A stretch of DNA of 64,000 nucleotides from Escherichia phage Eps7. Made by a program: the position numbers and the translations under genes. Below the pieces are notes generated by a model that worked only from the letters and a program-made list of their open reading frames with translations, was not told the origin of the DNA and searched no databases. Below, piece after piece: positions 2,876 through 48,800 of this stretch. How positions within the stretch are numbered: the stretch's first letter is position 1; each line of letters begins with the position of its first letter. The stretch lies in sequence record NC_010583.1; one strand, 5' to 3'.

Positions 2876-2904
2876 ATTATATTTGAATTTCACTCAGTAA
2901 GCAA
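2876..2904 (-). promoter_or_regulatory. sigma70-type promoter TTGCTT-17-TATAAT
   Basis: minus strand reads CATTTGCTTACTGAGTGAAATTCAAATATAAT, upstream of an AAGGAT RBS. Confidence 0.55.
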
Positions 2905-2920
2905 ATGAAATTTAAATATA

Positions 2921-2938
2921 ATAGCCCCGAAGGGCTAT
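2921..2938 (-). terminator. hairpin with UUCG tetraloop, followed by a T-rich tract
   Basis: ATAGCCCCGAAGGGCTAT; minus-strand RNA forms C(UUCG)G stem-loop then UUAUAUUU. Confidence 0.5.
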
Positions 2939-2943
2939 TTGAA

Positions 2944-3297
2944 TTAGATTATAATCAAGATTATTAGGGCGTATGTCAGATAATGCAGTAACTGATCAAA
3001 TCCTAAAGCTATCCAAAACTTAGCATCGCTTATAGCATATTTACAGCGTTGTGCTTTCCAATAATCTATAATAAAGTGTAGAATTAATTCCATAATAGCT
3101 AAAGCTATAGACATTCCTGGTGATGTGAATAGGATTAGAATTGCAAATGTTAATCCAGCATGTACTAGCGAATGGGTTAATAATGGAAGTTTCCACCCTA
3201 TTTTATGCGTCTTTCTTAGCATATATGGTGTTTGGAGTGGATAATCGGCCATAAAATGTTTTAGAAAGAATATGACAAATAATAGTATAATTAACAT
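2944..3297 (-). CDS. hypothetical multi-pass membrane protein (His-rich)
   Basis: 117-aa ORF with three or four hydrophobic segments. Confidence 0.5.
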   Translation of the reverse strand: MLIILLFVIFFLKHFMADYPLQTPYMLRKTHKIGWKLPLLTHSLVHAGLTFAILILFTSPGMSIALAIMELILHFIIDYWKAQRCKYAISDAKFWIALGFDQLLHYLTYALIILIII

Positions 3298-3300
3298 ATG

Positions 3301-4155
3301 TTACACCGTAAATGGATATGCAATAGCAGGATGGTGTTCATAGCCACGAACAGTAAAATCATCCTTACTTACCCACGTTAATACATCATCCAAAGTTCTA
3401 ATATTTGGATTGATTTCTAAAGTAGGAGGTGCAAAAGGTTCACGATCGAATTGCTTGTGCTCCATCAGAACATTATACTGATCTTCATAGATATGAAGAT
3501 TAATAATCTTTTGACGAGCAATACCTGGCTTAAGACCTGTAATCTGTGCCATAATAGCTAGAAGTGCATAGCATTGCACCATATTAAATACTTGGCCCAG
3601 CAAGAAATCATTAGACCTCTGGAAAGAGTTTAGGTATAGTGTATCACCTAAAATAGAGAATTGATGGGTATGCATACACGGACGTAGGCATCCTTTACGA
3701 AATTCCCCACGGGTTCCAAAAGTTAAAATTTCTCCACGATCGTCAATCCCTCTTTTCAAATTATGATAGACTTTGGCTAACTGATCAAATACCATACCAT
3801 CAGAATTAGTCCAATGACGTCCTTGAACACCATAGACTCGTCCCATATCATCCTCGCCTTTACGGAATGGATTACCTAGCCAGGCAATATTTTCATTTGC
3901 ATTAGCATTCCATGTATTAACACCAATAGCGCGGAATTGTGCTGCTGAGTCGTACCCACGGAGATATCCGATCATTTCCATTATTGCTTGTTTAGCAAAT
4001 GCTTTACGAGTAGTTACTAGCGGCAGTTCTCCTGCTCCTACGTTAAAGGTAAAGTCTGCATCAATAATGGTTAGGCAACGAACCCCTGTTCTAGGATTCG
4101 TTACCCATACACCCTCTTCAAGAATACGTTTTCCAGTTTCAATATATTGCTTCAT
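3301..4155 (-). CDS. thyA: thymidylate synthase
   Basis: active-site region [10 protein letters not shown] (Cys nucleophile) and overall ThyA-like layout; 284 aa. Confidence 0.95.
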
Positions 4156-4680
4156 TTAAATATCACCAATTCTTGTAAGAATGAAAGCGTTTTATCTGCA
4201 TTCTGTCCTGCCACATAGTCCATTCTAGTTGCCATTGAATTATAAGTAATATGATGATGCAGATGTACATCAGCAGATAATGGTGTGGCTGAAGTAATAG
4301 TAGAGATATACGCCATATCTAGATGATTTTTTGACATACATTTCAAGAAGCAGAGTTGCTCCCCCTAATACTACAGTTACCTCTTCCTTGAGAAAATCAG
4401 GCAGACGGTATCCAATGTTGCTTATGCGTGTAGCTGATCTTATAGAGTTCGGTAGTGGTCTATTTGCATAAATAAATAGGTCAGAATCTCCTAGTATTCT
4501 TTTTTGCAGAGTCTCAGGGAATGCTAACCAAGTTCCTGCTCCTACAATAATATTGTCAGGTGCCAGAGAATCCAATGTAGCATAGAAGATATCTAGTTCT
4601 TCTTTGAAAGAACCCCAGGGGAGCTTACCATTGAGGCCGAACTCCCCATTCGGCCCAGTTGCATAGATTGCTGCTATCAT
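4152..4680 (-). CDS. frd: dihydrofolate reductase, interrupted by a frameshift in a homopolymer
   Basis: N-terminal [22 protein letters not shown] and GGATLL motifs; frame is lost at T6 (4327-4332) and a DHFR-like C-terminus resumes in the overlapping 64-aa ORF; total ~166 aa. Confidence 0.8.
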
Positions 4681-5825
4681 TAGAACATATCCTCAAATTC
4701 GTTGCCAAGATCTTTCAGAGTATCAGCAGATGTTTCTGTTACTTGACCTACACGATACGCTGCGCCAATCTGAATCTCTTGCGGAGCAGGTTGTAAAGAT
4801 GTAGTATCCAACCAGTTCATAATCCACGGAATAGGGTTCTTAGTAATTACAGGTAAGTGGCTTGGCCATTCTACACCAATGTGCATAAATGCGTTACGTC
4901 CTACAAAGTAAAGGTATTCTTCAAGCAGTTCTGCGTTCAAACCAATCAGACTGCGGCCTTTAAAGATAAAGTGGCCCCATTCAATCTCAGTTTTCAGAGT
5001 TTTTAGGAGTTGTGTTGGTGCTTTAGCTAATGCTTCATCTACCAGATCTTTATCAAATTGCTGGAACATAATCTGGATGATAGCTTTAGACATTTGAGTA
5101 TGTAGAGCTTCATCTTTAGCGATTAATTGCAGGTTCTTAGCAATACCTTGCAGAATATCGTTCTCTGCTAGAGCAAAGGTACATGCAAAGGATGCGTAGA
5201 ACTGCATTGCTTCCAGACCGTAGATTGCAAAGTAAGCATCTAACAGCTTAGCCTGAGTTTCACGTTTAACTTCAGGGAACTCAGTTTCTGGATAAGTATT
5301 ATCACCACGATGATCACGTACTGCAAGGAAATACTGACCTAACAGATACAATTCATCAAACAGTTCAACAGAATCTGCGATACGTGCAAATGCTTCTTGG
5401 TTTTTAGTTACAGAATCAATAAATTCTGCTGGATCAGTCAGAACGTTACGAATAATATTACTATACGCACGGCTGTGCAGATCTTCGAAGTAGCTCCACT
5501 GCTTGAGCATACCCTCCAATTCAGGACGGCTTACAAGCGGCATAATAGCTGCTTCAGGAGCACGGCTAATGAAAGAATCTGTTTGGGTCTGCCATGCTAA
5601 GTTCAGGAGAGTAATTTCCTGAATATCACGCGGAAGGTTTGGCCATTGTTTCTTATCGGCTTCCAGACTGATTTCAGTTTCAGTCCAAAATTGAGAACGT
5701 TGCAGAAGTGCTAGACGCTCAAGTTCAGGATGTGCTACACGAACGTAATCTGCGATACCAAGAGAATCGCCCAGGAAAAGGTCAGCGTTAGTATGATCCC
5801 AATTCAGGTTTAGTAAAGTAGTCAT
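4680..5825 (-). CDS. nrdB: ribonucleotide reductase class Ia beta subunit
   Basis: collinear with E. coli NrdB (EDLHSRAYS, FYASFA, AKDEALH iron-ligand regions); 381 aa. Confidence 0.95.
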   Translation of the reverse strand: MTTLLNLNWDHTNADLFLGDSLGIADYVRVAHPELERLALLQRSQFWTETEISLEADKKQWPNLPRDIQEITLLNLAWQTQTDSFISRAPEAAIMPLVSRPELEGMLKQWSYFEDLHSRAYSNIIRNVLTDPAEFIDSVTKNQEAFARIADSVELFDELYLLGQYFLAVRDHRGDNTYPETEFPEVKRETQAKLLDAYFAIYGLEAMQFYASFACTFALAENDILQGIAKNLQLIAKDEALHTQMSKAIIQIMFQQFDKDLVDEALAKAPTQLLKTLKTEIEWGHFIFKGRSLIGLNAELLEEYLYFVGRNAFMHIGVEWPSHLPVITKNPIPWIMNWLDTTSLQPAPQEIQIGAAYRVGQVTETSADTLKDLGNEFEDMF

Positions 5826-5891: not shown

Positions 5892-6374
5892 TTATAAACT
5901 ATCAAGCTCCAATAGTTTAGCATCGCGCCATTCTATAGCATCCTCTAATTCTTTAAATGTTTTAGTATGTTTTACACCTTTCCTAGCTATTTGGACTTGA
6001 TAAGATCCACTTGCTTTTTGGTGTATATTTTTAATACCTAACTTATTGTCCTTATGTGCTCCAACGTTCTTTCCATTACTAAATCTGTTAGAGGCTAGTA
6101 AATTAATTGCTCTATTATCATGACGTATTCTATTATCATGATCTACTTCTTTTGGGATGTACCCATGCGTAATATAGAATGCTAGGATATGTGCGTAGTA
6201 TTTTGTACCTCTTACCTGCATTACTATGTATCCTGAGCATTTTTCCAAAGAGCCTGCCTCTTTGCCTGCAAACTTAGTATTAAATGATTTATCTTCTCTA
6301 GGTTTGTGGGTAAAGATTCCGGTTTCTGGATTATAGTCAAATAACTCAGCTATTTCTTTGTATTTTTCTTCCAT
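5892..6374 (-). CDS. HNH homing endonuclease with AP2-type DNA-binding domain
   Basis: HILAFYITHGYIP..VDHDNRIRHDNRAINL (HNH) plus GVKHTKTFKELEDAIEWRD (AP2-like); sits between nrdA and nrdB. Confidence 0.8.
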   Translation of the reverse strand: MEEKYKEIAELFDYNPETGIFTHKPREDKSFNTKFAGKEAGSLEKCSGYIVMQVRGTKYYAHILAFYITHGYIPKEVDHDNRIRHDNRAINLLASNRFSNGKNVGAHKDNKLGIKNIHQKASGSYQVQIARKGVKHTKTFKELEDAIEWRDAKLLELDSL

Positions 6375-6429: not shown

Positions 6430-8822
6430 TTATAATTGACAACCACCAGATGCGCATCCAGCAGCAGCTTCCTCTCCTGCACCTCCACCATTTTCAGTGT
6501 TGAAGTTTGCATAATAAAAGGTTTTCCAACCGTACTTAACAGCAGTCATAAAGTCACGAACTACTACTGGGCCGGGAATGATTTCATTCTCGAACTTGGT
6601 GTAGTCATAGTACATATTCGTACTGATAGACTGGCTGAAGAATTTCTGCATGGTTGCTACCCATTTGATCCACTCGATACGATCTACATCATAAGCCAGT
6701 TTATAGCTCATTAATGTATCCCAATCAGTTGCACCTGGAGCAATTGCAATTACTTTATTAACTGCACTACCCTTGATAGATACGATCTTACGGGGCGGTT
6801 CGATAGAGTTAGTAACACCTAGCAGTACAGAGGAACTTTCACCTGGCATCTGAGCAGTCAGAACAGAGTTGCGCATACCATATTTCAGAATATCTGCACG
6901 CAGAGATTCCCAATCCATTTCTAGACCTACAGTTACCAGTTCATCAACAGTTTTCTTGTACGTGTCGATTACCAGAGTTCCTTGCGAAGGCTTAGTACGA
7001 TTAAACCAGTCACATGCACCTTGTTCTTTAGCCAGACGTACAGAGGCTTTATGTAGGAAGTAGGACAGCTTTTCAGCTTCACGGTGAATCCAGTTACGTG
7101 CTTCAACACCTTCGTAAGCCAAACCTTCTGCTGCCATTGCACCTGCTGCGTTCATCAGACCAATACCAACGTTACGACGTTTCTTAGCCGTGTACTTCCA
7201 TAGTTGGGAATGGGTAATCCTGAATCTCGATGATTGTATCAACGAATTTCAGAAGGATGTAGCAAGTTTTCTCCCATTCAGCCAGAGATTCCATGCGGCC
7301 TAGTACAACACCACCTAAGTTACACAGAGATACTTCACCAATATCTTCTGGACGCATATCGTCTAACTGATCTTGGGTTTTATACAGTTCCGTAACGTGA
7401 TGGAATGGACGGGTGGCTGAGTAATTCAACACAAAAGGGTTGGTCATACGAATCGGGTCAAGGAAGTTACCATGACGGTTAGATTCACCAATGTGATGAG
7501 CATACATACGCCCTGTTTCCATACGGATACGTAACCAAGTATCTAGGATTTCTTTTGCAGAGATTCTAGGAGCTGCTGGAATTGTTTTTCCTTCGTGGTC
7601 GATCTTTGTAAGAGAAGCCACACGTTTCTCCGCTGCCACGTAGATTTCTTCAAACTTAGCCTCATCTTCACCATAAAACGCTTCATGAACTTCTGGTGCG
7701 TAGAAGTAGGACATTAGCGTAATATCTTCGTTTTTCAGGTAACGTTTTAACAGAAGGTTGTTAAAGCTCAGAGAATAATCCATCTTATCGATTTTATTCT
7801 CGTCTGTAGCACGTTGCTGCTTAACCTGCATCAACTGAATGATTTCAGGATCGAAGTATGGATAAGACACAGTAGCAGAACCGCCACGGGTTTGCTGAGT
7901 GTTAGCTTTTACTGATCGGTCAATGTGTCGATAATATGGCAGTTTTCCGGAATGCGGGAATGCCCCATTTCGCACCGGATCAGCAATTGATCGGCTTTCA
8001 AGATGATACCCGATTCCCGCTCTGGCTGCGACCATTTTGAAGACGATGTGCTCGGCTGTGTCGATTGAATCCAGCGTGTCAGTGGAATCCACGAGACAGC
8101 AACTAGCAAATCCACGGTCACTAGAGCGCAGGCCAACCAGTGGCGGCGTAGGAACGTTGATTTTGTGGAGCGACATTGCATTGTAGAGGTCGATTGCATC
8201 TAGGATTGTCCAGTTAGGTTGAGATAACATCGCCATTGCCATACCCATGTAGGCAAACTGCGGGGTTTCATAAATTTCACCAGTTGCAATATTACGACGA
8301 GAATACTTGTCGAAGAACTGTTTCAGTCCACCACTGGTGAATAAACGATCGCGATCATGATCAATAACTTGGTTCAGAGCGTCAAACTGATCATCGCTAA
8401 TCCATGCACTCATGTCTTCCCAGCGCCAACACGAACCATATGATCGTGGAAGAAACGCAGAGAAGGGGTTCAAAGGAATCATATAGGCGTTTACGCATCT
8501 GCGCAAGACGTAATTCCTTTGCTACAGTATCATATGCTGGGTTGTCTTTGATAAGACCTTCAGCGGCTTTAATTAACACATCTTGGAGGGTATCGGAATC
8601 TACAACACCTTTTGGTAGATTTTTCTGGGCAGACATAACGACGGCAGACCAACTTACGTCAGTTGCTTTACATGCCCATGCAGCCCAATCATTGAGTTTT
8701 TCAGGAGCAAAGTCCTGAACAGTACCGTCACGTTTAATTACTTTTTCAATACTATGGCTCATTGGGGTTTCCTTTTTGTAGTTATCAGGATTTAGGAAAT
8801 ATTCTACTTTGTTTTGGGTCAT
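6430..8822 (-). CDS. nrdA: ribonucleotide reductase class Ia alpha subunit, split over three frames by single-base indels
   Basis: ATP-cone N-terminus (8397..8822), catalytic core (7184..8506) and C-terminus GIGLMN..CASGGCQL (6430..7242) are collinear with E. coli NrdA; frame breaks at G4 (8465-8468), CCC (8419-8421) and about 7181-7190. Confidence 0.9.
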
Positions 8823-12284: not shown

Positions 12285-12447
12285 TCTAGAAAACATGCTT
12301 ATGGAGCAGTGGAACTCTGGGTATAATGCTGGGGTGGCTACTTGTATTGCGGGGTTGGATATGCTTATTAAGCAAGAAAAGGTACGTCCAGAAGAAGCAA
12401 TTCTACTCCAAAATATCATCGAAGGATTCAAGCAAGGAATCGTATAA
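12253..12447 (+). CDS. hypothetical protein (64 aa)
   Basis: GGAGGAG RBS 7 nt upstream of ATG 12253; overlaps previous ORF. Confidence 0.4.
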   Translation: MDFLNQNLKNNLENMLMEQWNSGYNAGVATCIAGLDMLIKQEKVRPEEAILLQNIIEGFKQGIV

Positions 12448-13261
12448 TGCGTAGACTAATCGTTGTTAGTGGTGCAGGTTTGAGTGTAGATAGTGGTGTT
12501 CGTGCTTTCCGTACTGATACTGCTAGTGGTAAAGCGTTGTGGGATGATTATGACCTAGAAGAGGTATGTAATATTCATGCCTTTCGTGGTAATTTTACCA
12601 TAAAACTCATATGTTTTACAACAAACGTCGTGAAGAGTTACAAACTGTTGAACCTAACCTAGCTCATTTGCGTATTGGTGAATGGTATAAACGGTATCCA
12701 AATCAAGTGGTAAACCTTACTACCAATGTTGATGATCTAATCGAACGTGCTGGAGTGCCGAGAGAAGATATACTCCATATTCATGGATATCTGAAAGAAA
12801 TTATTGTAGAGCATGCGTTCGACCAGACACGTGATGTTATTGATATTGGGTATAGTTCTATTGATCCAGATGACTTTGATTGGGTTAAACCTAACGTTAT
12901 CTTCTTTGGTGAGGTTGCTCCTGCCTATAAAACAATGTATGAGGTTTTTGATGGTATCACCAGTCATGATATGATCATCATTGTTGGGTGCTCTAACCAA
13001 GTAATTAACTTCTACTGGGAGCTATTTCCTGTTCTGAATCTTACTGCTGCAAAACTTATGGTAGTTAACTATTACGATAGTGCAGTAGCTATGGAACCAG
13101 GCTATCAGGGCATGACTCGTAGTGAAATGTATCAGTTAGAAGAACGTGGTATTCCTTACTGGAGTAAAGGTGCTGTGGATGCCTTTAGTGATCCCGATTT
13201 TATTGCTCGTGTGGAAGCTCATCTAGAAGGTAAACCCTATGTTCAACAAAAGCATGTGTGA
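12447..13261 (+). CDS. Sir2-family NAD-dependent deacetylase / ADP-ribosyltransferase-like protein, frameshifted
   Basis: VVSGAGLSVDSGVRAFR (GAGxS..SG..FR), TTNVDDLIERAG, HG, KPNVIFFGE, IIVGCS motifs; frame break at T4 (12594-12597). Confidence 0.8.
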
Positions 13262-18549: not shown

Positions 18550-18578
18550 TTGCTTTCAGGAAAAATTTTCTGTATAAT
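18550..18578 (+). promoter_or_regulatory. T5 PN25-type strong early promoter
   Basis: ATTTGCTTTCAGGAAAAATTTTCTGTATAATAGATTCATAAATTTGAGAGAGGAGTT matches the PN25 sequence as I recall it. Confidence 0.85.
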
Positions 18579-20441: not shown

Positions 20442-20750
20442 ATGAGCGATCAGGTAAATCAAAACTATGAAGGACACATTGACGACCAGTCCATCATGCT
20501 TTGGGAGAAGGACGGGGAACAAGTAAGACTAACCGTATCTGAATTTCGTGGGAATCTATACATGGGAATTCGTTACTGGCTCCAAGATATTACTGGAGAG
20601 TGGTTTCCAACGAAATCCGGCTTCTCTTTTCCTTATACCCTAGAAACTACATCACAGCTATTTTACGCTTTTACGCAAATCCTCAGTGAATCCGAGGTCT
20701 TGCATGAAGTACAGAAACGAGCTGAAGAACTCAAAGCCAAGAATGCCTAG
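20442..20750 (+). CDS. hypothetical protein (102 aa)
   Basis: ORF between terminator and next promoter. Confidence 0.5.
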   Translation: MSDQVNQNYEGHIDDQSIMLWEKDGEQVRLTVSEFRGNLYMGIRYWLQDITGEWFPTKSGFSFPYTLETTSQLFYAFTQILSESEVLHEVQKRAEELKAKNA

Positions 20751-20777
20751 TTCTTGGCTTTTTCTTTATAAATGTAC

Positions 20778-20806
20778 TTGCTTTCGACTCAGTTTTGTTA
20801 TATAAT
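20778..20806 (+). promoter_or_regulatory. T5-type promoter TTGCTT-17-TATAAT with downstream ATTTATATAAATTGATGAGAGA box
   Basis: sequence match to the promoter family. Confidence 0.65.
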
Positions 20807-20837
20807 ATTTATATAAATTGATGAGAGATATAAATAA

Positions 20838-21809
20838 ATGACTAATGTAAAAGAATTTATTAAACGCTGTCAAGAAGCATATTATCAAGGTATGTCTTTA
20901 ATCTCTGACGAAGAATATGATCGTCTGATTAAAAGATTCCCACTAGAGGAAGAAATCGGACCGAAAGGTGATATTCCTCATTTGTATCGTATGTATTCTT
21001 TGCAGAAAGTCTATTACGGTCGCGGTGATAAAGCTCCATTCAATCCATTAGGTCAGGTTGAAACTGATAAGTTAGATGGTTGTGCGATTTCTCTATTATA
21101 TATTAATGGTGAATTTGTTCAAGCGTTAACTCGTGGTAACGGTATTCTAGGGAATGATGTAACGCATAATGTTAAAATGCTGAACATCCCCAAAACTATT
21201 TCCCAAAAAGTACCAACTCAAATCACTGGTGAAGTTCTCATTACTAAAGAAGTAGAGAACAAACGTAACTACGCTTCGGGTGCTATTAACCTGAAAGACA
21301 GCGATGATTTCATCCAACGTATTGGTGAAGGTGGTTTAATCTTCGTTGCATACGGTATCCAGTGTTCAGCGGAAACAGTCGGTATTACAGAAGCCTATTT
21401 AAAAGATATGCTTTGGCTAGAGAATGAGAACTTCTTGACAGTTGTTAATGTTCGTTCCTTTTTTAAATGGATTCCGACGGACGGTAAAGTTGTTCGTATT
21501 AACGACAACAATAAATTCTTCCGTGAAGGTTGGACTAATAAATTTCCTCGTGGTGCATTTGCTATTAAAGAGGATGAAGAAGGCGAAATTACCACACTTG
21601 TTAAAGTTGAATGGCAAGTAGGGGCTTCTGGTAAAGTAACTCCAGTTGGTTATTTCGAACCGGTGATTATTGATGATGCCACAATCGTTAAAGCAACTCT
21701 TAATAACGTTGATTATATTAACGCTCTCGATTTAGAGATCGGTTGCCAGATTCGAGTGATTCGTGCTGGTGGTGTAATCCCTTGTATAGTAGAGCGAGTA
21801 TACGACTAA
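20838..21809 (+). CDS. ligA: NAD-dependent DNA ligase, subunit A (adenylation domain)
   Basis: EYDRL N-terminal motif, KLDG adenylation lysine, TRGNG motif; 323 aa. Confidence 0.9.
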   Translation: MTNVKEFIKRCQEAYYQGMSLISDEEYDRLIKRFPLEEEIGPKGDIPHLYRMYSLQKVYYGRGDKAPFNPLGQVETDKLDGCAISLLYINGEFVQALTRGNGILGNDVTHNVKMLNIPKTISQKVPTQITGEVLITKEVENKRNYASGAINLKDSDDFIQRIGEGGLIFVAYGIQCSAETVGITEAYLKDMLWLENENFLTVVNVRSFFKWIPTDGKVVRINDNNKFFREGWTNKFPRGAFAIKEDEEGEITTLVKVEWQVGASGKVTPVGYFEPVIIDDATIVKATLNNVDYINALDLEIGCQIRVIRAGGVIPCIVERVYD

Positions 21810-21862
21810 TTCGTAACCCTTTGCTACCCGTTTACCATGTCGGAATTATAAAGTGGTTATTG

Positions 21863-21891
21863 ACATTTTCGCCGCTTAGGTATATACTATT
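21863..21891 (+). promoter_or_regulatory. sigma70 promoter TTGACA-17-TATACT
   Basis: in the spacer between the two ligase halves. Confidence 0.5.
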
Positions 21892-21953
21892 ATCATTCAG
21901 TTGAGGGATAGAAAGTTATGGCGAGGGTAAGCAAAGTTAGTTAAAATTGTAGT

Positions 21954-21981
21954 TGCTAAATGCTTAAATACTTGCTATAAT
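21954..21981 (+). promoter_or_regulatory. T5-type promoter with downstream ATTTATATAAATTGATAAGGAAG box
   Basis: TTGCTA-16-TATAAT. Confidence 0.6.
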
Positions 21982-22008
21982 ATTTATATAAATTGATAAG
22001 GAAGAAAT

Positions 22009-22790
22009 TTGATGAAAATCGAAATTCCAACACAATGTCCCTCTTGTGGTTCTAAGCTAGATCTTGTCAACGGGCAATTATTCTGTAGGAATAAGTCCAA
22101 CTGTCCAGCGCAATCAAGTAAGTTAATCGAGAACTTCTGCACAAAAATGAAGTTAAAGGGCTTTGGCCCGAAAACTATTGAGAAGCTGGAGCTGACTAAG
22201 ATCTCAGAACTGTTTTACCTGACCGAAGAAGATTTGGTCGGAGCTGTGGGTAGCAAGGTTGCCGCTAAATTGATTAGCGAGTTAAATACAAGGTTCGCGG
22301 AGACATTGACTTTGGTTCAGTTCTCGGTTCTTTAGGAATTCCTCTTATTGGAGAGGTTGCAGCAAAGAAACTGTCCCAAAATTGCACTAGCTTCCACGAT
22401 GTGAAGGCTGACGGCAAGGCTGGAGAAAATTACAAAACCTGGCTAAATTCCCCACAAGGCAAGGATGTTATTGAATTACCGTGGAAATTCTCAACTGGTA
22501 TCCGAGGTGCTAAAGCTGACATCATCATTACAGATGATTTAGTTGCCCAGCCAAATGGAATCACGGTCTGTATTACCGGATCTTTGCAAGATTTTGCAAA
22601 TCGAACGGATGCAACAAACTATTTAGAAAGTCTAGGGTATACGGTTAAGAAGTCCGTTACCAAAGACGTCAAATACCTAATCTGTGAGGATGAATCAAAA
22701 CGTTCTTCCTCATCTTATAAGAAAGCCGAAACGAATGGGATAGAAATCCTGTCGATTAAAGAACTATTGGAGAAAAATAATAATGTCTAA
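22009..22790 (+). CDS. ligB: NAD-dependent DNA ligase, subunit B (Zn finger, HhH, BRCT), frameshifted
   Basis: [15 protein letters not shown] Zn finger, [10 protein letters not shown] Hh[19 protein letters not shown]; frame break about 22303-22312. Confidence 0.85.
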
Positions 22791-23550
22791 ACTGAACTGG
22801 AACGTAGAAGGTGTAACCGAGTCTCTGAAAGCAAAAGCCACTGCTCTGGGTGTTGCTGTAATCTCTCAAGAACAAGTAGCTGCTATCGCTGCTGAACTGG
22901 CTACCGAGACTGGTAAAGACGTTACCGCTCGCTCTGTTGGCTCTAAGCTGCGTAAAGAAGGTTTCGAAGTACAGAAAGCTAACGAAGTACAGAAATCCCC
23001 GTGGACTCCTGAGCAGGAAGCTGAACTGGTTGATTTCCTGAACGCTCATGCGGGTCAGTATACTTACGCTGAAATCGCTGCTGCTGTAGCTGGTGGTCAG
23101 TTCGGTGCTAAGCAGGTTCAGGGTAAGATCCTGAGTCTGGAAATGACTGCTTCTGTTAAGCCAACCGAAAAAGCTGCTGCTGTTCGTTCCTTCACTCCTG
23201 ACGAAGAAACTGATTTCGTTAATCAGGTTGTTGCTGGTGCTACTATTGAAGCTATCGCTGCTCACTTCGGTCGCAATATTAAGCAGATCCGTGGTAAAGC
23301 TCTGAGTCTGCTTCGTGAAGGTCGTATCGCTGCTATGCCGGTACAGGAAACTTCAAGTGCTAAAACTCGTGAAGATCTGTTAGAAGGTCTGGATCTGGCT
23401 AACATGACTGTTGCTGAGATCGCTGAGAAAACTGGTAAGTCTGAGCGCGGTGTTAAATCTATGCTGTCTCGTCGTGGTCTGGTTGCTAAGGACTATGATG
23501 GTGCCGCTAAGCGTGCTAAACTGGATGCAAAAGCTGCGGCTGCTGAATAA
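22783..23550 (+). CDS. Ala-rich protein with four internal HTH-like repeats, putative DNA-binding protein
   Basis: repeated ..EIAA..G...V.(S/G)K..SL.. modules; optimal codon usage; 255 aa. Confidence 0.55.
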   Translation: MSKLNWNVEGVTESLKAKATALGVAVISQEQVAAIAAELATETGKDVTARSVGSKLRKEGFEVQKANEVQKSPWTPEQEAELVDFLNAHAGQYTYAEIAAAVAGGQFGAKQVQGKILSLEMTASVKPTEKAAAVRSFTPDEETDFVNQVVAGATIEAIAAHFGRNIKQIRGKALSLLREGRIAAMPVQETSSAKTREDLLEGLDLANMTVAEIAEKTGKSERGVKSMLSRRGLVAKDYDGAAKRAKLDAKAAAAE

Positions 23551-30545: not shown

Positions 30546-30575
30546 TTGTCAAATCCTCCCGATTTAATGTATAAT
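30546..30575 (+). promoter_or_regulatory. T5-type promoter TTGTCA-18-TATAAT with downstream ATACATAAATTGATGAGAGAC box
   Basis: second tandem promoter. Confidence 0.6.
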
Positions 30576-36882: not shown

Positions 36883-39833
36883 TTATGGTAGTTCTGTAAT
36901 TGTTGGAGCATTTCCGTTAAGCATTGATTTTACAAGGTTTTTCAGTTCATATAACTCATTGCGTAATACGTTAATTTCCTCCTGTTGATTATCAATCTTT
37001 GCTTTTTGCTCTTTGAATGCGTTAACAAGAAGTGCGACAACACCATTATAGTTAATGCCTTTGATTGCCTCGCCTTTTGGGTCTAGCTGACCATCGTTAT
37101 TCAAAGAATGAACCGCTTCCGGCAAAACCCTTTCAACATCTTGTGCGATCAATCCAGCCTCAATACTATAAACGCTGTTTTCATCTTCAATTAGATTGTT
37201 GCGCTTGTAGTAAGTATAACCAGTTAGATAATCAATTTTGTCGGATGCCGTTTCGATCTCTTTTAGATGTGCTTTTAATCTAATGTCAGACCTGCTAACC
37301 CAATTTGATGCGCTACCATTTCCAGCACTATCAAAAATAAAGTCAGCGCCCTTAACATAAAGATGTGTTTCAGCGCCGCCAGAAGTCCACGGAACAACAT
37401 CCATGCCAGCTATCCAATCTTTCCCCAATAAACAGATTTAAATATGGCAACCGCAGAATCAAATCCAATGTGCTCAACAAGCAATCCAGACGCACGACTA
37501 CGCCAGTCGGCAAATGAACCACCCTCAACTTGACCAGCAATAAGAGCGTTTGGATCACCGCGCCTAACTCCATTTACATACATACCCCTTGCGTTATCAT
37601 CAACATAAGATGATATGACCCTGTAAGTGTTTATTCCTGATGGAGTCCATGCAAATATTCTCGCTGAATCAGCAAACGCGCTTATGTGACCATCACGATC
37701 CCATTTAAGACCTGAATCATGATCCCCAATTGCTATAGAGTAATCACCAAGAGCCGATTGAGCATCCGGACTTAATAACATCAATTGCCTATCAGATCTT
37801 GCTATCCTGTACCATCCACCCCAAGAGCCAGCACTGCAAATGATACCCCATTTATTACCGTTCATTGCGGTTGCAACAATATTTCCATACTCAACATGAC
37901 CGTTTGCATTTTTACCGTGAACATGCAATTCATACATCCACCAACCAGAGGCTTCAGGTGGTTGATATGTAACAAGTTCTCCGCTTGAGTAATAACCGCT
38001 TTCTGCGTATGTTGACATAAACCCAAGAATGTTTGAATTATTAGGAATAATAATTGCTTGACCACCAACAGGAGTATTTAAGTTCTTTCTTGCTCCAACT
38101 TCAGTATTAGATCCAGTGCCGCCAGCATCAATTGAAAGAGGAATCCATCTTCCAGTTTCATCAGTCCAAACACCCCACGCCGCATCAGGTCTAATTGTGA
38201 TTCGATAAGGTGAGTTACTCCCTGGTGCATACATCATAGTTTCTGTTTCTGTTTGCTTTAAACGATCAATGCCAAAGTTTATTTTTGCGCCCTCAACGTT
38301 TTCAGCACCAGTACCGCCAGCACCAATAGAAAGCGCAGATGTGCTGTTATTGTCATTACGCGCAACGCGCCATTCCCCATTGTTAGCGATCCGTAATTCA
38401 TAAGTCCATGCAGGATTACGAAAAGAATTATAAGCGCCAGCATATTGATCTTTTACAGAATTAACAGCCTCAACTTTTAGCGCCTCCCTTGCAAGGTCTT
38501 TGTTTGCAAGATCATTAAGGTTCTGATCCTTCTTTAACGACGCTTGCATAACCTGTTCTGCTGATGCAGCCGCTGTCTCCGCTCTATCTGCTGCACTGGT
38601 GGCATTAGTAGCTTTCTCTCCTGCTATTGTAGCGCTACCAGCGGCCTCCAGGGCCTTGTCTGTTGCTGTCGTTGCAGCAGTAGTGGCGGTATTTTTAAAT
38701 ACCTCTGCTTCGTCTCTGTAGCCTTTGGTTGTGGTCATCGCTTGCGTAGCTGTATTCGCACTACCTGATGCACTTTGCTGAGCTAGCTTAGCAGCGTCTT
38801 CACTAGCTTTTGAGTTAATTTCACTAGTCTTTGTATTAGTTTCTGAGTTTTTTGCTGCTAATGCTGATGTGGAGGCTTGTGCAGCGAATGCTTCTGCTTC
38901 ATCCCTGAATCCTTTGGAGTCAGAAGCAGAGGCAGCGGAATCAGCAGCATTAGTCTCACTAGTTTTTGCTGCTGCTGCATATGCTGCTGCATTAGTCTCA
39001 CTAGTTTTTGCATTAGTCTCACTAGTTTTTGCATTAATCTCACTAGTTTTTGCTGCAGCTGATGATTCTATAGCAGTAGTTTCACTAATTTTTGCTGCAG
39101 CTGATGATTCTGCAGCTTTAGTAGCGGATGCAGCAGATTGAGAAGCAGAAATAGCAGACTGAGAAGCAGAAGCTTCAGAAGCTTCAGCAGAAATAGCAGA
39201 TTCATTCTCAGAATTCTTAGCATTAAGTTCTGAAGTCTTAGCAGCTATCTCGGAGTCTTTTGCAGTAGTAGCGTATTCTCCCGCCTCTGTAGCAGAACCA
39301 GCAGCAGCAATAGCCTGATTGGTAGACTCAGTAGCAGATGTAGCAGCATTTTGCTCAGAAGTAGCAGCAGCAGTCTTAGCAGCCTCAGCGTCCTTCTTAG
39401 CTTGTTCAGCTAATAGACGACTCTGTTCAGCATTTTGTGCAGCAAGTTCAGCAGAATCACGGAATCCTTTGGATTCCTCAGCTGACGTAGCAGAGGCATC
39501 AGCACTATCTTTAGATAAACCAGCTTGTCTCTCCGCTTCAGTAGCAGAAGCAGCAGATTGAGTTGCAGAAGTTTCTGAAGAGTTAGCGTAAATTGCAGCT
39601 AGGTTCTCCGAGTCCTTAGCATTTGTTTCAGATTCTTTTGCTGCAATTTCAGAATCTTTTGCTGCCGCAGCAGAAGCAGCAGAGGCCTCAACAGCCCCTG
39701 TTAGTTCACTAGCAGTAATAGAACTAATAGAAGTACCTAAAACTACCGTATACTTAGGATATTTACTAGCAGTAGTTGTAGTGTCATCTATGTTCAGAAT
39801 CTGCTGTACAATAATTTTAGTTTTAAGTGCCAT
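36883..39833 (-). CDS. ltf: L-shaped tail fibre (pb1-like) with C-terminal intramolecular chaperone domain, frameshifted
   Basis: Ala/Ser/Thr-rich fibrous repeats, then a Gly-rich globular domain, then chaperone motif IEAGLIAQDVERVLPEAV; frame break at C4/G4 (37423-37426). Confidence 0.8.
38947..39115. repeat. 21-bp tandem repeats inside the tail fibre gene (encoding KTSETNA heptads)
   Basis: ATTAGTCTCACTAGTTTTTGC x3 in tandem at 38990-39052 plus further partial copies. Confidence 0.7.
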
Positions 39834-40260: not shown

Positions 40261-42319
40261 TTACCTTATATGGATATACCCACTATTTAGGTCTATCTTC
40301 ATCTTGTAGTATGCTTCAGGGTTTCCTGATAACGCAGCATTTCTATCGTAGATTATATTAACACCTATTTGTGATAAGAAGGCATTTCCTGCCACAATCT
40401 TATCAGCAGTTACAGTTCCATTAACAATCATGTTGCCATGAAGAACCATTGCAGGGTTAATCCATCCAGCCCCGTTCCATTGACGGGTAAATGCTGTTTG
40501 TGGAGCATTACTGTTAAATTGTGTTAGAACATCGTATTTAACCGGAGGTTTTCCAAAGTTATTTTGAAAGAATGCGTTAGCTTGTCCATCATCCCAACCG
40601 CCTAATCCAGGAATACCCATGGAGTACATCCCAGGACCACGCTGTCCATCATGTCCTATAGTACCTTCAGTACCACTCCATTGAACTACATCAGACCAGC
40701 TAGTACCTTCAAGAAGTTTGTTAGTAACTGGATCAAGTGTACCTGTAGTCGCATAGATATTTTGTGTCATATCTGTACGATTAGGTGGAGTTTTTGACCA
40801 ACCAGGAGGTGGATAATCTTGTTCTAACGGTTTGGCCGGTAAAGATGTTGCTAACTTATAAACAAATACTGTTTGCTTACCTTGTAAACCAGTTCCAATA
40901 TCTACGTCACCATTTGGTGTTCCAATTACTACACCACTAGAAATACGCAGAGTAGTACCATCATAACGTATCCATTGTGTAGCATTACCAATGTCTAACT
41001 TAGCTTTGGCAGAGGTATTATCCATACCCATCCAAATACCAGAGTTATTATCTCCCCAAGATTTACCTTGAGTATAAATTGCTGGATTATCTTTACCAGA
41101 TAAGTTAGTCATGATAAAGTTCGCAGCATTAATATCTCTAGTAATTACTTTACCATCGACGTTAACAACACGATTTATAGGGTCGAAAGAAATAGGTGCT
41201 TTTCCTTCTTCATCTAGCAGACCAATGTTAATAGCACCAGTAGCTGCATCAATTAAGAATGTCTGTCTCCAGATTTCTCCATCTTTCATACTACCCTTAA
41301 TAAAGGCATAGTTAACATCAATACCAGTCTCATTGACAAAACTATTATCTAGAGGAGTATCTTCATTCAATATAAATGTTACAGGAGCTGATTCTGTTAT
41401 ATCTTGCTTATTTGGTCCCCAGGCAATTGATGAAACCTTAAAGGTATGTTCAACTTTCCATGGGAATGATATAATCGTTGCAGCTCTAGCAGCACCCACG
41501 TTTATCTTTTGAGCTTTAGCCCATCCGGTTTTAGCGTATTCCTCGGAGTTTATATAAGTAACCAAGAACTCACGAACGTTAGCACCAGCACCACGTTCCC
41601 ATTCCCACTCAATTCTAACATCATATCGTTCTTTACCATCAGCAATTCGTGCAGCTTTAAAAACAATATCGATAGGTGCAGTAGGTGGAACAAAGTTATA
41701 AGCTACAGTTAGAATATTAGGAAACTCGTAGTATCCTGAAGAATCAACTGTAACACCATCAGGCATAGTTACTTGACCAGATATTCTGATCTTATAGTCT
41801 CCGATAGGAACTCCACCAAATTTAATAGTAGAACCTAAAGCCCCAATATAATATTTAGTCCAAGGACTGTCTTCAGTGGCTGTACTTTTTAACTCAATAG
41901 TACAGTAACTTGCTTCACCAGTTGTTTCCACAACAACTATCGGTGCGCCCACCCCAACATCCACAGGTTCTGACTCAGATCTTGCTGCGACAATTATTGG
42001 CTTCTCTTTTGTTTTAAAGTTAGTTTCATTAGAGAGGTTAATACCAATTTTTGCATTTAAAAGTTCTGAGTCAATAATCGAGTCATAAAAAAGCTCCCTG
42101 AACCTGATAGGTAGTTGAGGGAGTTAAATTATTGATCATAACAAAGAAAGTGTCGATTCCAGTGAAATCTCTTCTATCCACTTCTTCGCCAAGTTTAAGC
42201 CAGAATGATCTACCGATAACATCGTAGTCGGTATAGATAGAATGCTGGATATACGCCATCGTATACCCAGTCATAATACTATTTAAGACCATCTTGGCTG
42301 GTGCATTATTCGAAATCAT
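40261..42319 (-). CDS. baseplate/tail-tip protein pb4-like, frameshifted
   Basis: 78-aa and 567-aa ORFs join into ~686 aa if the A6 run (42087-42092) is read as A5. Confidence 0.7.
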
Positions 42320-45887: not shown

Positions 45888-48800
45888 TTAAGAATTACCA
45901 AGTGATTTCAGGGTGGTTCCATTCTCATTAAGAGCCTGTTCCACGGCATCCCTGAAAGCAGCACTGTTACTCGAAGCAAAGTCTCGGAAGCTAGCCGCAT
46001 CCATCGTACTGATGTTCAGCACAATAGGCCTACCCGATGTACCCTTTGAAGATCCTTTGAGTTCATCAGTAGGAGTAGCCTTCATCGGAACCATAGGAGT
46101 GATTACTTCGGTACCATGCTCACCCATCTGGTAACTAACTCCAGGGTACATATTACCACCTTCTGCACGAGGTACGAAAGAGTTCGCATTACCAATCCCT
46201 TGATCTCCTCGAATATAAGAAAGTTCTCCTGCGTTAGCCGACATAGAAACGTCTACGTTCTTCTGGCGCTCTCCAAGAGACAAGTATTGAGCTGTCTCAG
46301 TACCCGAGTCTCCAATAGAAGACATACCAGATGCAGAGGATGCTTGTGCAAGAGACAATGCACCTGCAACACCTGCTGCAATCATAAGAGGGATAGACCA
46401 CGGGTAAGGAACAGCTGTTGCTGCTTGCATCACCGCTACTGCCGTCTGAATTATGATCTGCTTCTTAGCTGCGTCTTGCTGGATCTTAACCTTTTCCGCT
46501 TCCAGTTTCTTGAGCTTAGCTTTAGATGCTTCGGATTTACCGTCACGTTTTTGCTCTGCTGCAATAGCCTGGTCAATAGCTGATACTTGATTACTTACTC
46601 CCATAGCAATCATTGAAGAAACCATCTGCATACCTGCCGCCACAGTGCTAACAGTATCTAAAGATCCCTGAGAGAACTGCATCATGGCATTAGTAAGATT
46701 TCCCATACTCTGGCCAACTTCCGTTGCTTGGCTATTTAATGCTCCAAGTTTAGAAATAGCTTCGTCGTAAGAGGCCATCTGGTTCTGCATATCAGCATAC
46801 TTCTTATCATCCCCAGATAAACCAGTCGTAGGAGTATAAGTAGCTCCAACAGAAGAACCTACCTGTTGCTGCATCTGAGCATTACGTTGTGCTGTTAAAG
46901 CCGACATCTGAGCCCTTGTCTTGGCTATTTCAGCATTCCAGCGCATTTGCTCGTTAGCATTACCTTTGGTAAGTTCTTTCATCTTGGTATAAAAATCTAA
47001 CTGCATTTCCATTTTTTTGCATTTCCCCTGCCAGAGGGAACATGGAAGTTAGAGTATTTTCAAAGGCTTCTTGCCTTTTACTGGTCATTTCAGCTTGCTG
47101 GTCTTGGCGGAATTTCCAGATTTCACGCCCTATCTGTGCTTGAGCACGTCTTGATTGTTCAGCTTCTTTCTGCTTATCAGCTTGTTTTGTATACCATTCG
47201 TACTTCTCTTTTTCAATAGTCAATTCAAGATTTAACTGTGCTAGACGATACTGAGTATCTGTCATAGTACGGTTATTTAAGAGAGCTATTTCACGATCAA
47301 CACCAAGAATCTTATCCGTATAGTCCTTAACTTTCTTCTGAGCTTCCATGTCCTGGTTAGTAATTTTGATACGTTCTAACTGAACCTTAGCTATTTCATT
47401 CTCAATTGCCTTGTTACCTTTGTTAGTTTCTAGGACACGCTTAAGAGCTGCTTCCTGTTCTTCTAACTGTTGGATTTCTAGACGTCTACCCGCTTCCTGT
47501 GCTTTCTCTTTATCCTTGGTCTGGTTGTACACTTCGGCAATCTTTTGCTGAACTTCTAGCTGATTTTTAGTCTCATTACTAGTTAATTTTACATAACCAG
47601 CAAGAGCTTGTGAGGCAGTCTTCATCTCACTAAGAGTATTATACCCTAAGTTCAGACTCTTAACATACTCATCAGCATTTTTACCAGTGCCGGCAGATAG
47701 AGACTCAATAGTCTTAATCGTATCCGATAGGGATGCACTAGTTTTAGCCGCAGTATTAGTATTTTCGGCAATGTTCTGGATATCGTTAGCTAAATCACTA
47801 GCAGTTTTCTTAGCCTGATCATATGCTTTCTGCTGTTCCGTCAGTCCTTTCAGAGTTGCGGAGTTAAAGTCATAAACCGCATCAGGGTCATTCATATCCT
47901 TCTGCAGATTAATCTGCTTCTGAAATTCTGGATTAGTCTTAGCAGCCGCAGCACCAGCAGCTTGATACGCAGATTTCCAAGCATTAAGGTTTTCAGTAGA
48001 GTCATCAACTTCTTTACCTAACCTTGCTACCTGTAGTCCCATAGCTGCGGTTTCTTCTACAAACTTTTTGTTAGCTTCGGAAGAACCTATGCGCACTCCC
48101 CCTACTTCAAATCCCCCAGCAGCTAATCCAACAGGCATTCCCTCACCCACTAATCTAATAGCGGCAGCAGTACTAGCATCTGCTTGGGACATACGTTTAT
48201 CAAACTCAGTCTTTAGTTTATTACGCTTATCCAGAGACTCTTTATACATATCAAGAGCTTTATTATATCCTTCCTCGGAAGCGGAAAGACTTAAAGCTAC
48301 AGCACCAACGTTAGTTGGGTCAATCTGACGGTTAGTTTCTTCTTGTGCTCTAGCAGCAGAAGCCGAGATAGATGCTTGAGAAGTATAGAATACTGCGTTA
48401 ATAGAATCAATTACCGGCCCTAAATACTTAGCAGCAGCCTGTTGAACCTTTCTTAGTGCAGCATCAGCGTTAGCAGCAAACTGTTCCCATGGAGTTGCAC
48501 GGAGTACGTCATCCAAGTAGCCGAAACGTTTAGTAGATTCAGCAATTACTGCGTTAGCATATGCTTGTTGCTTTTGGAAAGTGGAAAGACTATTGACGTT
48601 ATATGTGATACCTGTGTTAGCAGCATTTAACTGTTTAACGTAGTCAGCGTAAGCATCATTAAGACGAATAGTAACACCAAGTTCGTCCAGAAGTTCGATT
48701 TCTTGTTTAGATACACCTTTGATTACACGGTTAAGTGCATCAGTCATATCAACACCAAGAACAGCAGCAGCACGACGGGCTACTAGACCAAATTTATTAA

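Follow-up and report, generated by a model that had tools for sequence, protein, structure and literature searches.

The NAD+-dependent DNA ligase of Escherichia phage Eps7 is very probably a two-subunit enzyme of the T5 type, encoded by two genes (ligA and ligB) that are separated by a spacer with conserved promoters, the break in the ligB reading frame being most likely an error of the deposited sequence. The split ligase is already known: it has been annotated since the T5 genome of 2005, and the structure of a homologous two-chain enzyme is available in the PDB. The sole point specific to the Eps7 locus is a probable single-base error in ligB, one of several such errors. Unless another phage is named, positions refer to the whole stretch of Eps7 DNA that was analysed (NC_010583.1), a window of 64,000 nucleotides.

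The first gene, ligA (20838-21809, + strand; ORF list and Pfam), encodes a protein of 323 aa (ACB97573.1, adjacent to ACB97574.1) in which an Ia-like N-terminus is followed by a nucleotidyltransferase (adenylation) domain with K78-LDG and by an OB fold. Pfam recognised the NAD-ligase adenylation domain (PF01653, 3e-23) and, at residues 252-321, the OB fold (PF03120, 9e-22). The adenylation lysine, K78, lies in a KxDG motif that reads ...ETDKLDGCA... The sequence-only reading had described ligA as the adenylation domain, which is correct but incomplete, as the OB fold is also encoded by this gene. At the N-terminus, LigA carries an Ia-like motif, YY-x(about 5-7)-ISDEEYDRL, which matches what we take to be the essential Ia residues of E. 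coli LigA (Y22, H23, D32, Y35 and D36), and residues 14-42 give a colinear but weak alignment (2 bits) with residues 23-52 of the Thermus filiformis ligase. LigA is 96% identical to its T5 homologue and matches chain A of PDB entry 9hu3 with an E-value of 2e-106.

Upstream of ligA, a strong terminator-like hairpin (20733-20761, + strand), made of a 12-pair stem and then a T run (TTCTTTATAA), would end the preceding transcription unit directly ahead of the ligA promoter. The putative ligA promoter itself, TTGCTT-17-TATAAT (20778-20806, + strand), was read from the sequence; its -35 hexamer has only 3/6 matches, hence its absence from the list produced by the promoter scan, and a promoter is annotated at the equivalent place in the records of T5 and of phage S114.

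The second gene, ligB (22012-22790, + strand), starts at ATG 22012 and counts 779 nt in Eps7, where one base is missing, versus 780 nt (259 aa) in its relatives. A Shine-Dalgarno-like sequence, AAGGAAG (21998-22004, + strand), can be read 7 nt before the ATG. The product contains a Cys4 Zn finger (C9, C12, C25 and C31) followed by an HhH region and a BRCT domain. The BRCT domain is recognised by Pfam (PF00533, 1e-8), the HhH and Zn matches fall below their respective Pfam cut-offs, and residues 2-251 align to positions 388-651 of the LigA family model TIGR00575 (1e-30). The cysteines, this alignment and the BRCT match together bear out the earlier description of ligB as the Zn-finger/HhH/BRCT portion of the enzyme. 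LigB matches chain B of 9hu3 at 1e-79, and T5 LigB is 97% identical to the repaired Eps7 LigB, the query being LigB of Salmonella phage SE24, which the repaired protein matches.

The nucleotidyltransferase domain with KxDG, the OB fold and the Cys4 Zn finger/HhH/BRCT portion of the LigA family are thus present across the two products; the family has them on a single polypeptide, and Eps7 has two genes 202 bp apart. On the NCBIfam model TIGR00575, residue 321 of LigA falls at position 378 and residue 2 of LigB at position 388. On E. coli LigA (2owo), residue 320 of LigA corresponds to residue 390 and residue 3 of LigB to residue 402. Alignment to bacterial LigA, which had been suggested as a means of defining the split point, therefore places it between E. 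coli residues 390 and 402. The two products tile the single-chain enzyme colinearly with a few linker residues missing, which locates the fission in the short linker that leads from the OB fold to the first cysteine of the zinc finger. The adjacent, co-oriented arrangement of ligA and ligB, with the split in the OB/Zn-finger linker, is that of a T5-type ligase.

This almost gap-free tiling of the LigA model could be taken to mean that the split is not real, and that a single-chain ligase is made from a gene interrupted by a sequencing artefact, an intron or an intein. Such a reading is extremely improbable. The two genes lie in different frames and the spacer holds five to seven stop codons in each of its three frames, so that no single repair could fuse ligA to ligB; repair of the frameshift yields a 259-aa LigB and no ligA-ligB fusion, whereas a continuous ligase ORF would have been expected if the separation were an artefact. 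No intein-sized insert is present at either the LigA or the LigB junction in the alignment to single-chain LigA, and no Rfam family was found in the spacer (scan of 20600-23000, E<=1), which at 202 bp is moreover too short for a typical group I or group II intron. ligB is equipped with a Shine-Dalgarno sequence and an ATG start of its own, and the homologous enzyme is present as two separate chains in PDB entry 9hu3. Finally, the ligase region matches 455 independent phage records, 429 of which span it, and two ligase genes were found in every annotation inspected. An intron or a riboswitch in the spacer was likewise rejected, the sole Rfam match of the scan being a chance one inside ligA (Ysr251, scoring 19 bits where the cut-off is 100).

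The distribution of the split was examined by tblastn with a query in which the last 100 aa of LigA were fused to the first 100 aa of LigB. Every T5-like phage sampled (from Salmonella, Escherichia, Klebsiella, Providencia and Vibrio) gave a match in two pieces, and one-piece matches came only from unrelated large phages, at less than 35% identity. The two pieces span 805 nt in the Salmonella and Escherichia phages, corresponding to a spacer of about 202 nt, and 802 nt in the Klebsiella phages. In the genomes compared, the ligA/ligB split is fixed across the family; it looks ancestral to the Demerecviridae, with a gap of variable content.

The non-coding spacer between the two genes (21810-22011, + strand) measures 202 bp, in agreement with the two separate ORFs and the spacer of about 200 bp first reported for this locus, and has a GC content of 32% and stops in three frames. 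It contains two tandem promoters on the + strand. The upstream one, TTGACA-17-TATACT (21860-21888), scored 11/12 in the scan and is equivalent to P-K28b of T5. The downstream one, TTGCTA-17-TATAAT with an extended -10 TG (21953-21981), scored 10/12 and is equivalent to P-K28a. When the spacer was shuffled 5000 times with its dinucleotides preserved, only 0.28% of the shuffled sequences had two sites scoring 10/12 or more on the + strand. The equivalent sites are labelled P-K 28b and P-K 28a in the T5 record (AY543070), and likewise in that of S114. In an alignment of Eps7, T5, a Klebsiella phage and Providencia phage PR1, hardly any change is seen in the -35 and -10 hexamers, in contrast to the drift at other spacer positions, as would be expected of a functional element. 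The scan, the shuffles, the T5 and S114 annotations and this conservation over four genera all agree with the initial proposal of two promoters in the spacer, and from the T5 annotation and the conservation both are predicted to be active as sigma-70 promoters. In the spacer, no terminator comparable to the hairpin at 20733-20761 was seen after ligA; the spacer of Providencia phage PR1, which measures 192 nt, has an annotated terminator there together with a promoter.

The downstream ligB promoter also shares a longer element with the putative ligA promoter. A 25-nt repeat made of the -10 hexamer and the next 19 nt (TATAATATTTATATAAATTGATAAG) is common to both (21976-22000 and 20801-20825, 24/25 matches, 96%), and recurs at 30570. 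The looser signature TATAAT-N6-ATAAATT has seven copies on the + strand of the window (11755, 18573, 20801, 21976, 30468, 30570 and 62597) versus 0.12 expected, and the copy at 18573 precedes D2, where the T5 record annotates P-N 25. Judging from the sequence, this seven-site family resembles the core of the T5 early promoters, together with an initial transcribed region that is conserved.

Beyond ligB, the D5 gene (22783-23550, + strand) starts within the end of ligB, overlapping its stop by 8 nt, so that transcription from the spacer promoters would extend into D5 and further genes, probably the helicase and the primase. Since the promoters would drive these genes in addition to ligB, we infer that it is chiefly as a promoter station that the spacer has been retained.

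The ligB frame itself is interrupted in the Eps7 sequence. The ORF that opens at ATG 22012 ends after 107 aa at a stop at 22333-22335, and the coding sequence continues in the -1 frame to 22790. Both frames are open solely across 22278-22332, which is the only interval that allows the shift. Over this region, Eps7 and SE24 are 99.9% identical, with one gap, and ligB is intact in both SE24 and S114 (780 nt, 259 aa). Alignment to these two phages shows that Eps7 has lost a T at 22289/22290 (1-nt deletion, + strand, AATAC[T]AAGG), and restoring this T yields a 259-aa protein that is identical in reading to SE24 LigB. The intact 259-aa ligB frame of a T5-type ligase is therefore absent from the Eps7 sequence as deposited. 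The frameshift announced by the sequence-only reading is real, although not at 22303-22312 where it had been put, the deletion lying 13-22 nt upstream; that estimate was nonetheless a reasonable one, given how narrow the interval open to the shift is. What follows the break is a 129-aa fragment covering the end of HhH and the BRCT domain (22401-22790, + strand), for which GTG is the only in-frame start; no Shine-Dalgarno sequence precedes GTG 22401. In the Eps7 record, the fragment is entered as NAD-dependent DNA ligase subunit B (ACB97574.1 / YP_001837054.1), the only protein that it matches exactly.

Several other genes of the window are interrupted in a comparable way, by isolated 1-nt indels. 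Compared with SE24 and SB6, the nrdA gene (6433-8822, - strand) contains three private 1-nt indels, at about 8466, 8422 and 7196, which leave it in three ORFs. Changes of frame, seen only against SB6, affect a Sir2-like gene (12447-13258, + strand, at about 12593) and the gene for the L-shaped tail fibre (36886-39833, - strand, at about 37422), and a further one was observed at about 47027, in the more divergent sequence of the tape-measure region (about 47014-47059, - strand). The gene for the homologue of tail protein pb4 (40264-42319, - strand) has one A too many in its A-run at 42081-42086, which shifts the frame, and this extra A was found in none of 217 matching records. Separately, a 160-aa ORF (5892-6374, - strand) is found between nrdB and nrdA, a position at which the SE24 and SB6 records show a homing endonuclease.

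The deletion in ligB may be a sequencing or assembly error or a genuine mutation. If it were genuine, the phage would make a 107-aa stub consisting of the Zn finger and part of the HhH region, and LigA alone or the host ligase would suffice. The site does not lie in a homopolymer run, and the deletion is hence not of the commonest kind of sequencing error; it figures in the deposited genome, where a 129-aa 'subunit B' was accepted at annotation; and the host has its own LigA, so that the phage ligase may be dispensable in the laboratory. Against this, the deletion is private to Eps7, being found in 0 of 431 related phage records, the best of which match at 99.2%, a difference that is the gap itself. 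The downstream fragment has a GTG start only, and no Shine-Dalgarno sequence. Private frameshifts also occur in nrdA, pb4, the tail fibre gene and others, and not all of them can be real if pb4 is essential. As a component of the T5 tail, pb4 is taken to be required for infectivity. An essential pb4 cannot be lost in a plaque-forming phage, which makes several single-base errors the simplest reading of the whole set, and the pb4 frameshift is strong evidence of errors in the Eps7 sequence. From these comparisons, a genuine mutation appears unlikely, and it is slightly less likely still that Eps7 propagates with a LigB truncated beyond the first HhH pair. Should the deletion nevertheless be real, a T5-like phage could do without the HhH/BRCT half under laboratory conditions, or LigA would function together with host factors.

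A third possibility is that full-length LigB is produced by programmed -1 ribosomal slippage, given that the two frames overlap across 22278-22332, where a -1 slip would restore the protein. We consider this highly implausible: the overlap contains no slippery heptamer of the X XXY YYZ type, and LigB lies in one frame in all 431 relatives, so the feature is not conserved. An error of sequencing or assembly is thus by far the most credible origin of the ligB deletion as judged from the alignments, and the phage most likely makes a normal 259-aa LigB. Because the deletion is private and one of several such breaks in the window, the advice to resequence this site, given with the original description, was well founded.

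The evidence fits a model in which the fission of an ancestral LigA-type gene, within the linker that joins the OB fold to the Zn finger, gave rise to LigA, which would hold the catalytic core, and LigB, which would hold the DNA-clamping half, each being translated from its own ribosome-binding site. The chemistry would fall to LigA: K78 would be adenylated from NAD+, NMN would be bound by the Ia-like segment, and the OB fold would close over the nick. LigB would provide the Zn finger/HhH/BRCT half, which completes the ring around DNA in single-chain LigA. Around nicked DNA, the two subunits would come together through non-covalent contacts and rebuild the clamp of the single-chain enzyme, and this clamp may seal both Okazaki fragments and the nicks of T5-type genomes. 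By analogy, an association of LigA and LigB is supported by the presence of both chains of a 55%-identical homologue in PDB entries 9hu3 and 9i5i. P-K28b and P-K28a, as strong tandem sigma-70 early promoters, would initiate transcription of ligB, of D5 and of the replication genes further downstream.

The value of these observations lies in quality control. The public EPS7 sequence is that of the namesake of the genus Epseptimavirus, and it seems to carry several single-base errors, which appear to break ligB, nrdA, pb4, the tail fibre gene and others. Gene calls made on it, such as the 129-aa 'subunit B', are unfit as references. The locus is also a case of stable gene fission, in which the gap serves as a promoter site in the enterobacterial phages and as a site for extra genes in the Vibrio phages.

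Among known systems, the closest is T5 itself (ligA T5.116 and ligB T5.117, AY543070), which has the same gene order and products of the same length as Eps7 (323 aa and 259 aa), a spacer that is again 202 bp long and carries P-K28b and P-K28a, and a D5 gene that likewise overlaps the ligB stop. The succession of ligA, P-K 28b, P-K 28a and ligB in AY543070, with the same spacing, confirms that the split is characteristic of T5, as stated in the first description of the locus. Eps7 differs in the private 1-nt deletion at 22289/22290 that interrupts ligB. The T5 split ligase is treated as known in a passage of PMC1684257 that cites Wang et al. 2005, and likewise in PMC3632103, and is linked to the sealing of the nicked genome in PMC4319617; no enzyme or heterodimer assay for the Eps7 or T5 ligase was found in the accessible literature.

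The ligase of Providencia phages vB_PreS_PR1 and PSTCR5 (PDB 9hu3, 9i5i) has the same split point, with both chains in one entry, and its subunits are 55% (LigA) and 54% (LigB) identical to those of Eps7; a literature search returned no paper describing 9hu3/9i5i or the PR1 ligase. With the single-chain bacterial LigA (E. coli, 2owo; Thermus filiformis, 1v9p/1dgs), the phage products are colinear and share the domain order, Ia (an Ia-like segment in the phage), nucleotidyltransferase (KxDG), OB fold, Cys4 Zn finger, HhH and BRCT. The bacterial enzyme is one polypeptide of about 670 aa, whereas the phage has 323 + 259 aa, a shorter nucleotidyltransferase region and the fission in the OB/Zn linker, and each phage half scores below the NCBIfam LigA cut-off (173 and 107 bits versus 444).

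The T5-like phages of Vibrio (Gary, JSF10 and 70E37-2; Ermolyevavirinae) also have a ligase split in this way, among the same neighbouring genes (D3 ... ligA ... ligB, D5, helicase, primase), but their ligA-ligB gap is wider and holds one or two small ORFs, in contrast to the bare promoter spacer of Eps7. In locus coordinates, the genes of the gap lie at 2904-3862 in Gary, 4302-5134 in JSF10 and 1797-2257 in 70E37-2. They include a DprA-like protein (phrog_768) and a protein of 73 aa, labelled 'DNA ligase' in PHROGs, in which no ligase motif is visible. An origin of the gap from a homing endonuclease was considered and rejected, as the Vibrio gap ORFs give no HNH or GIY-YIG matches, their only hits being the DprA-like PHROG and the PHROG labelled 'DNA ligase'. 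The Vibrio phages thus share with Eps7 and T5 the division of the ligase into two genes, and differ from Eps7 in what lies between them.
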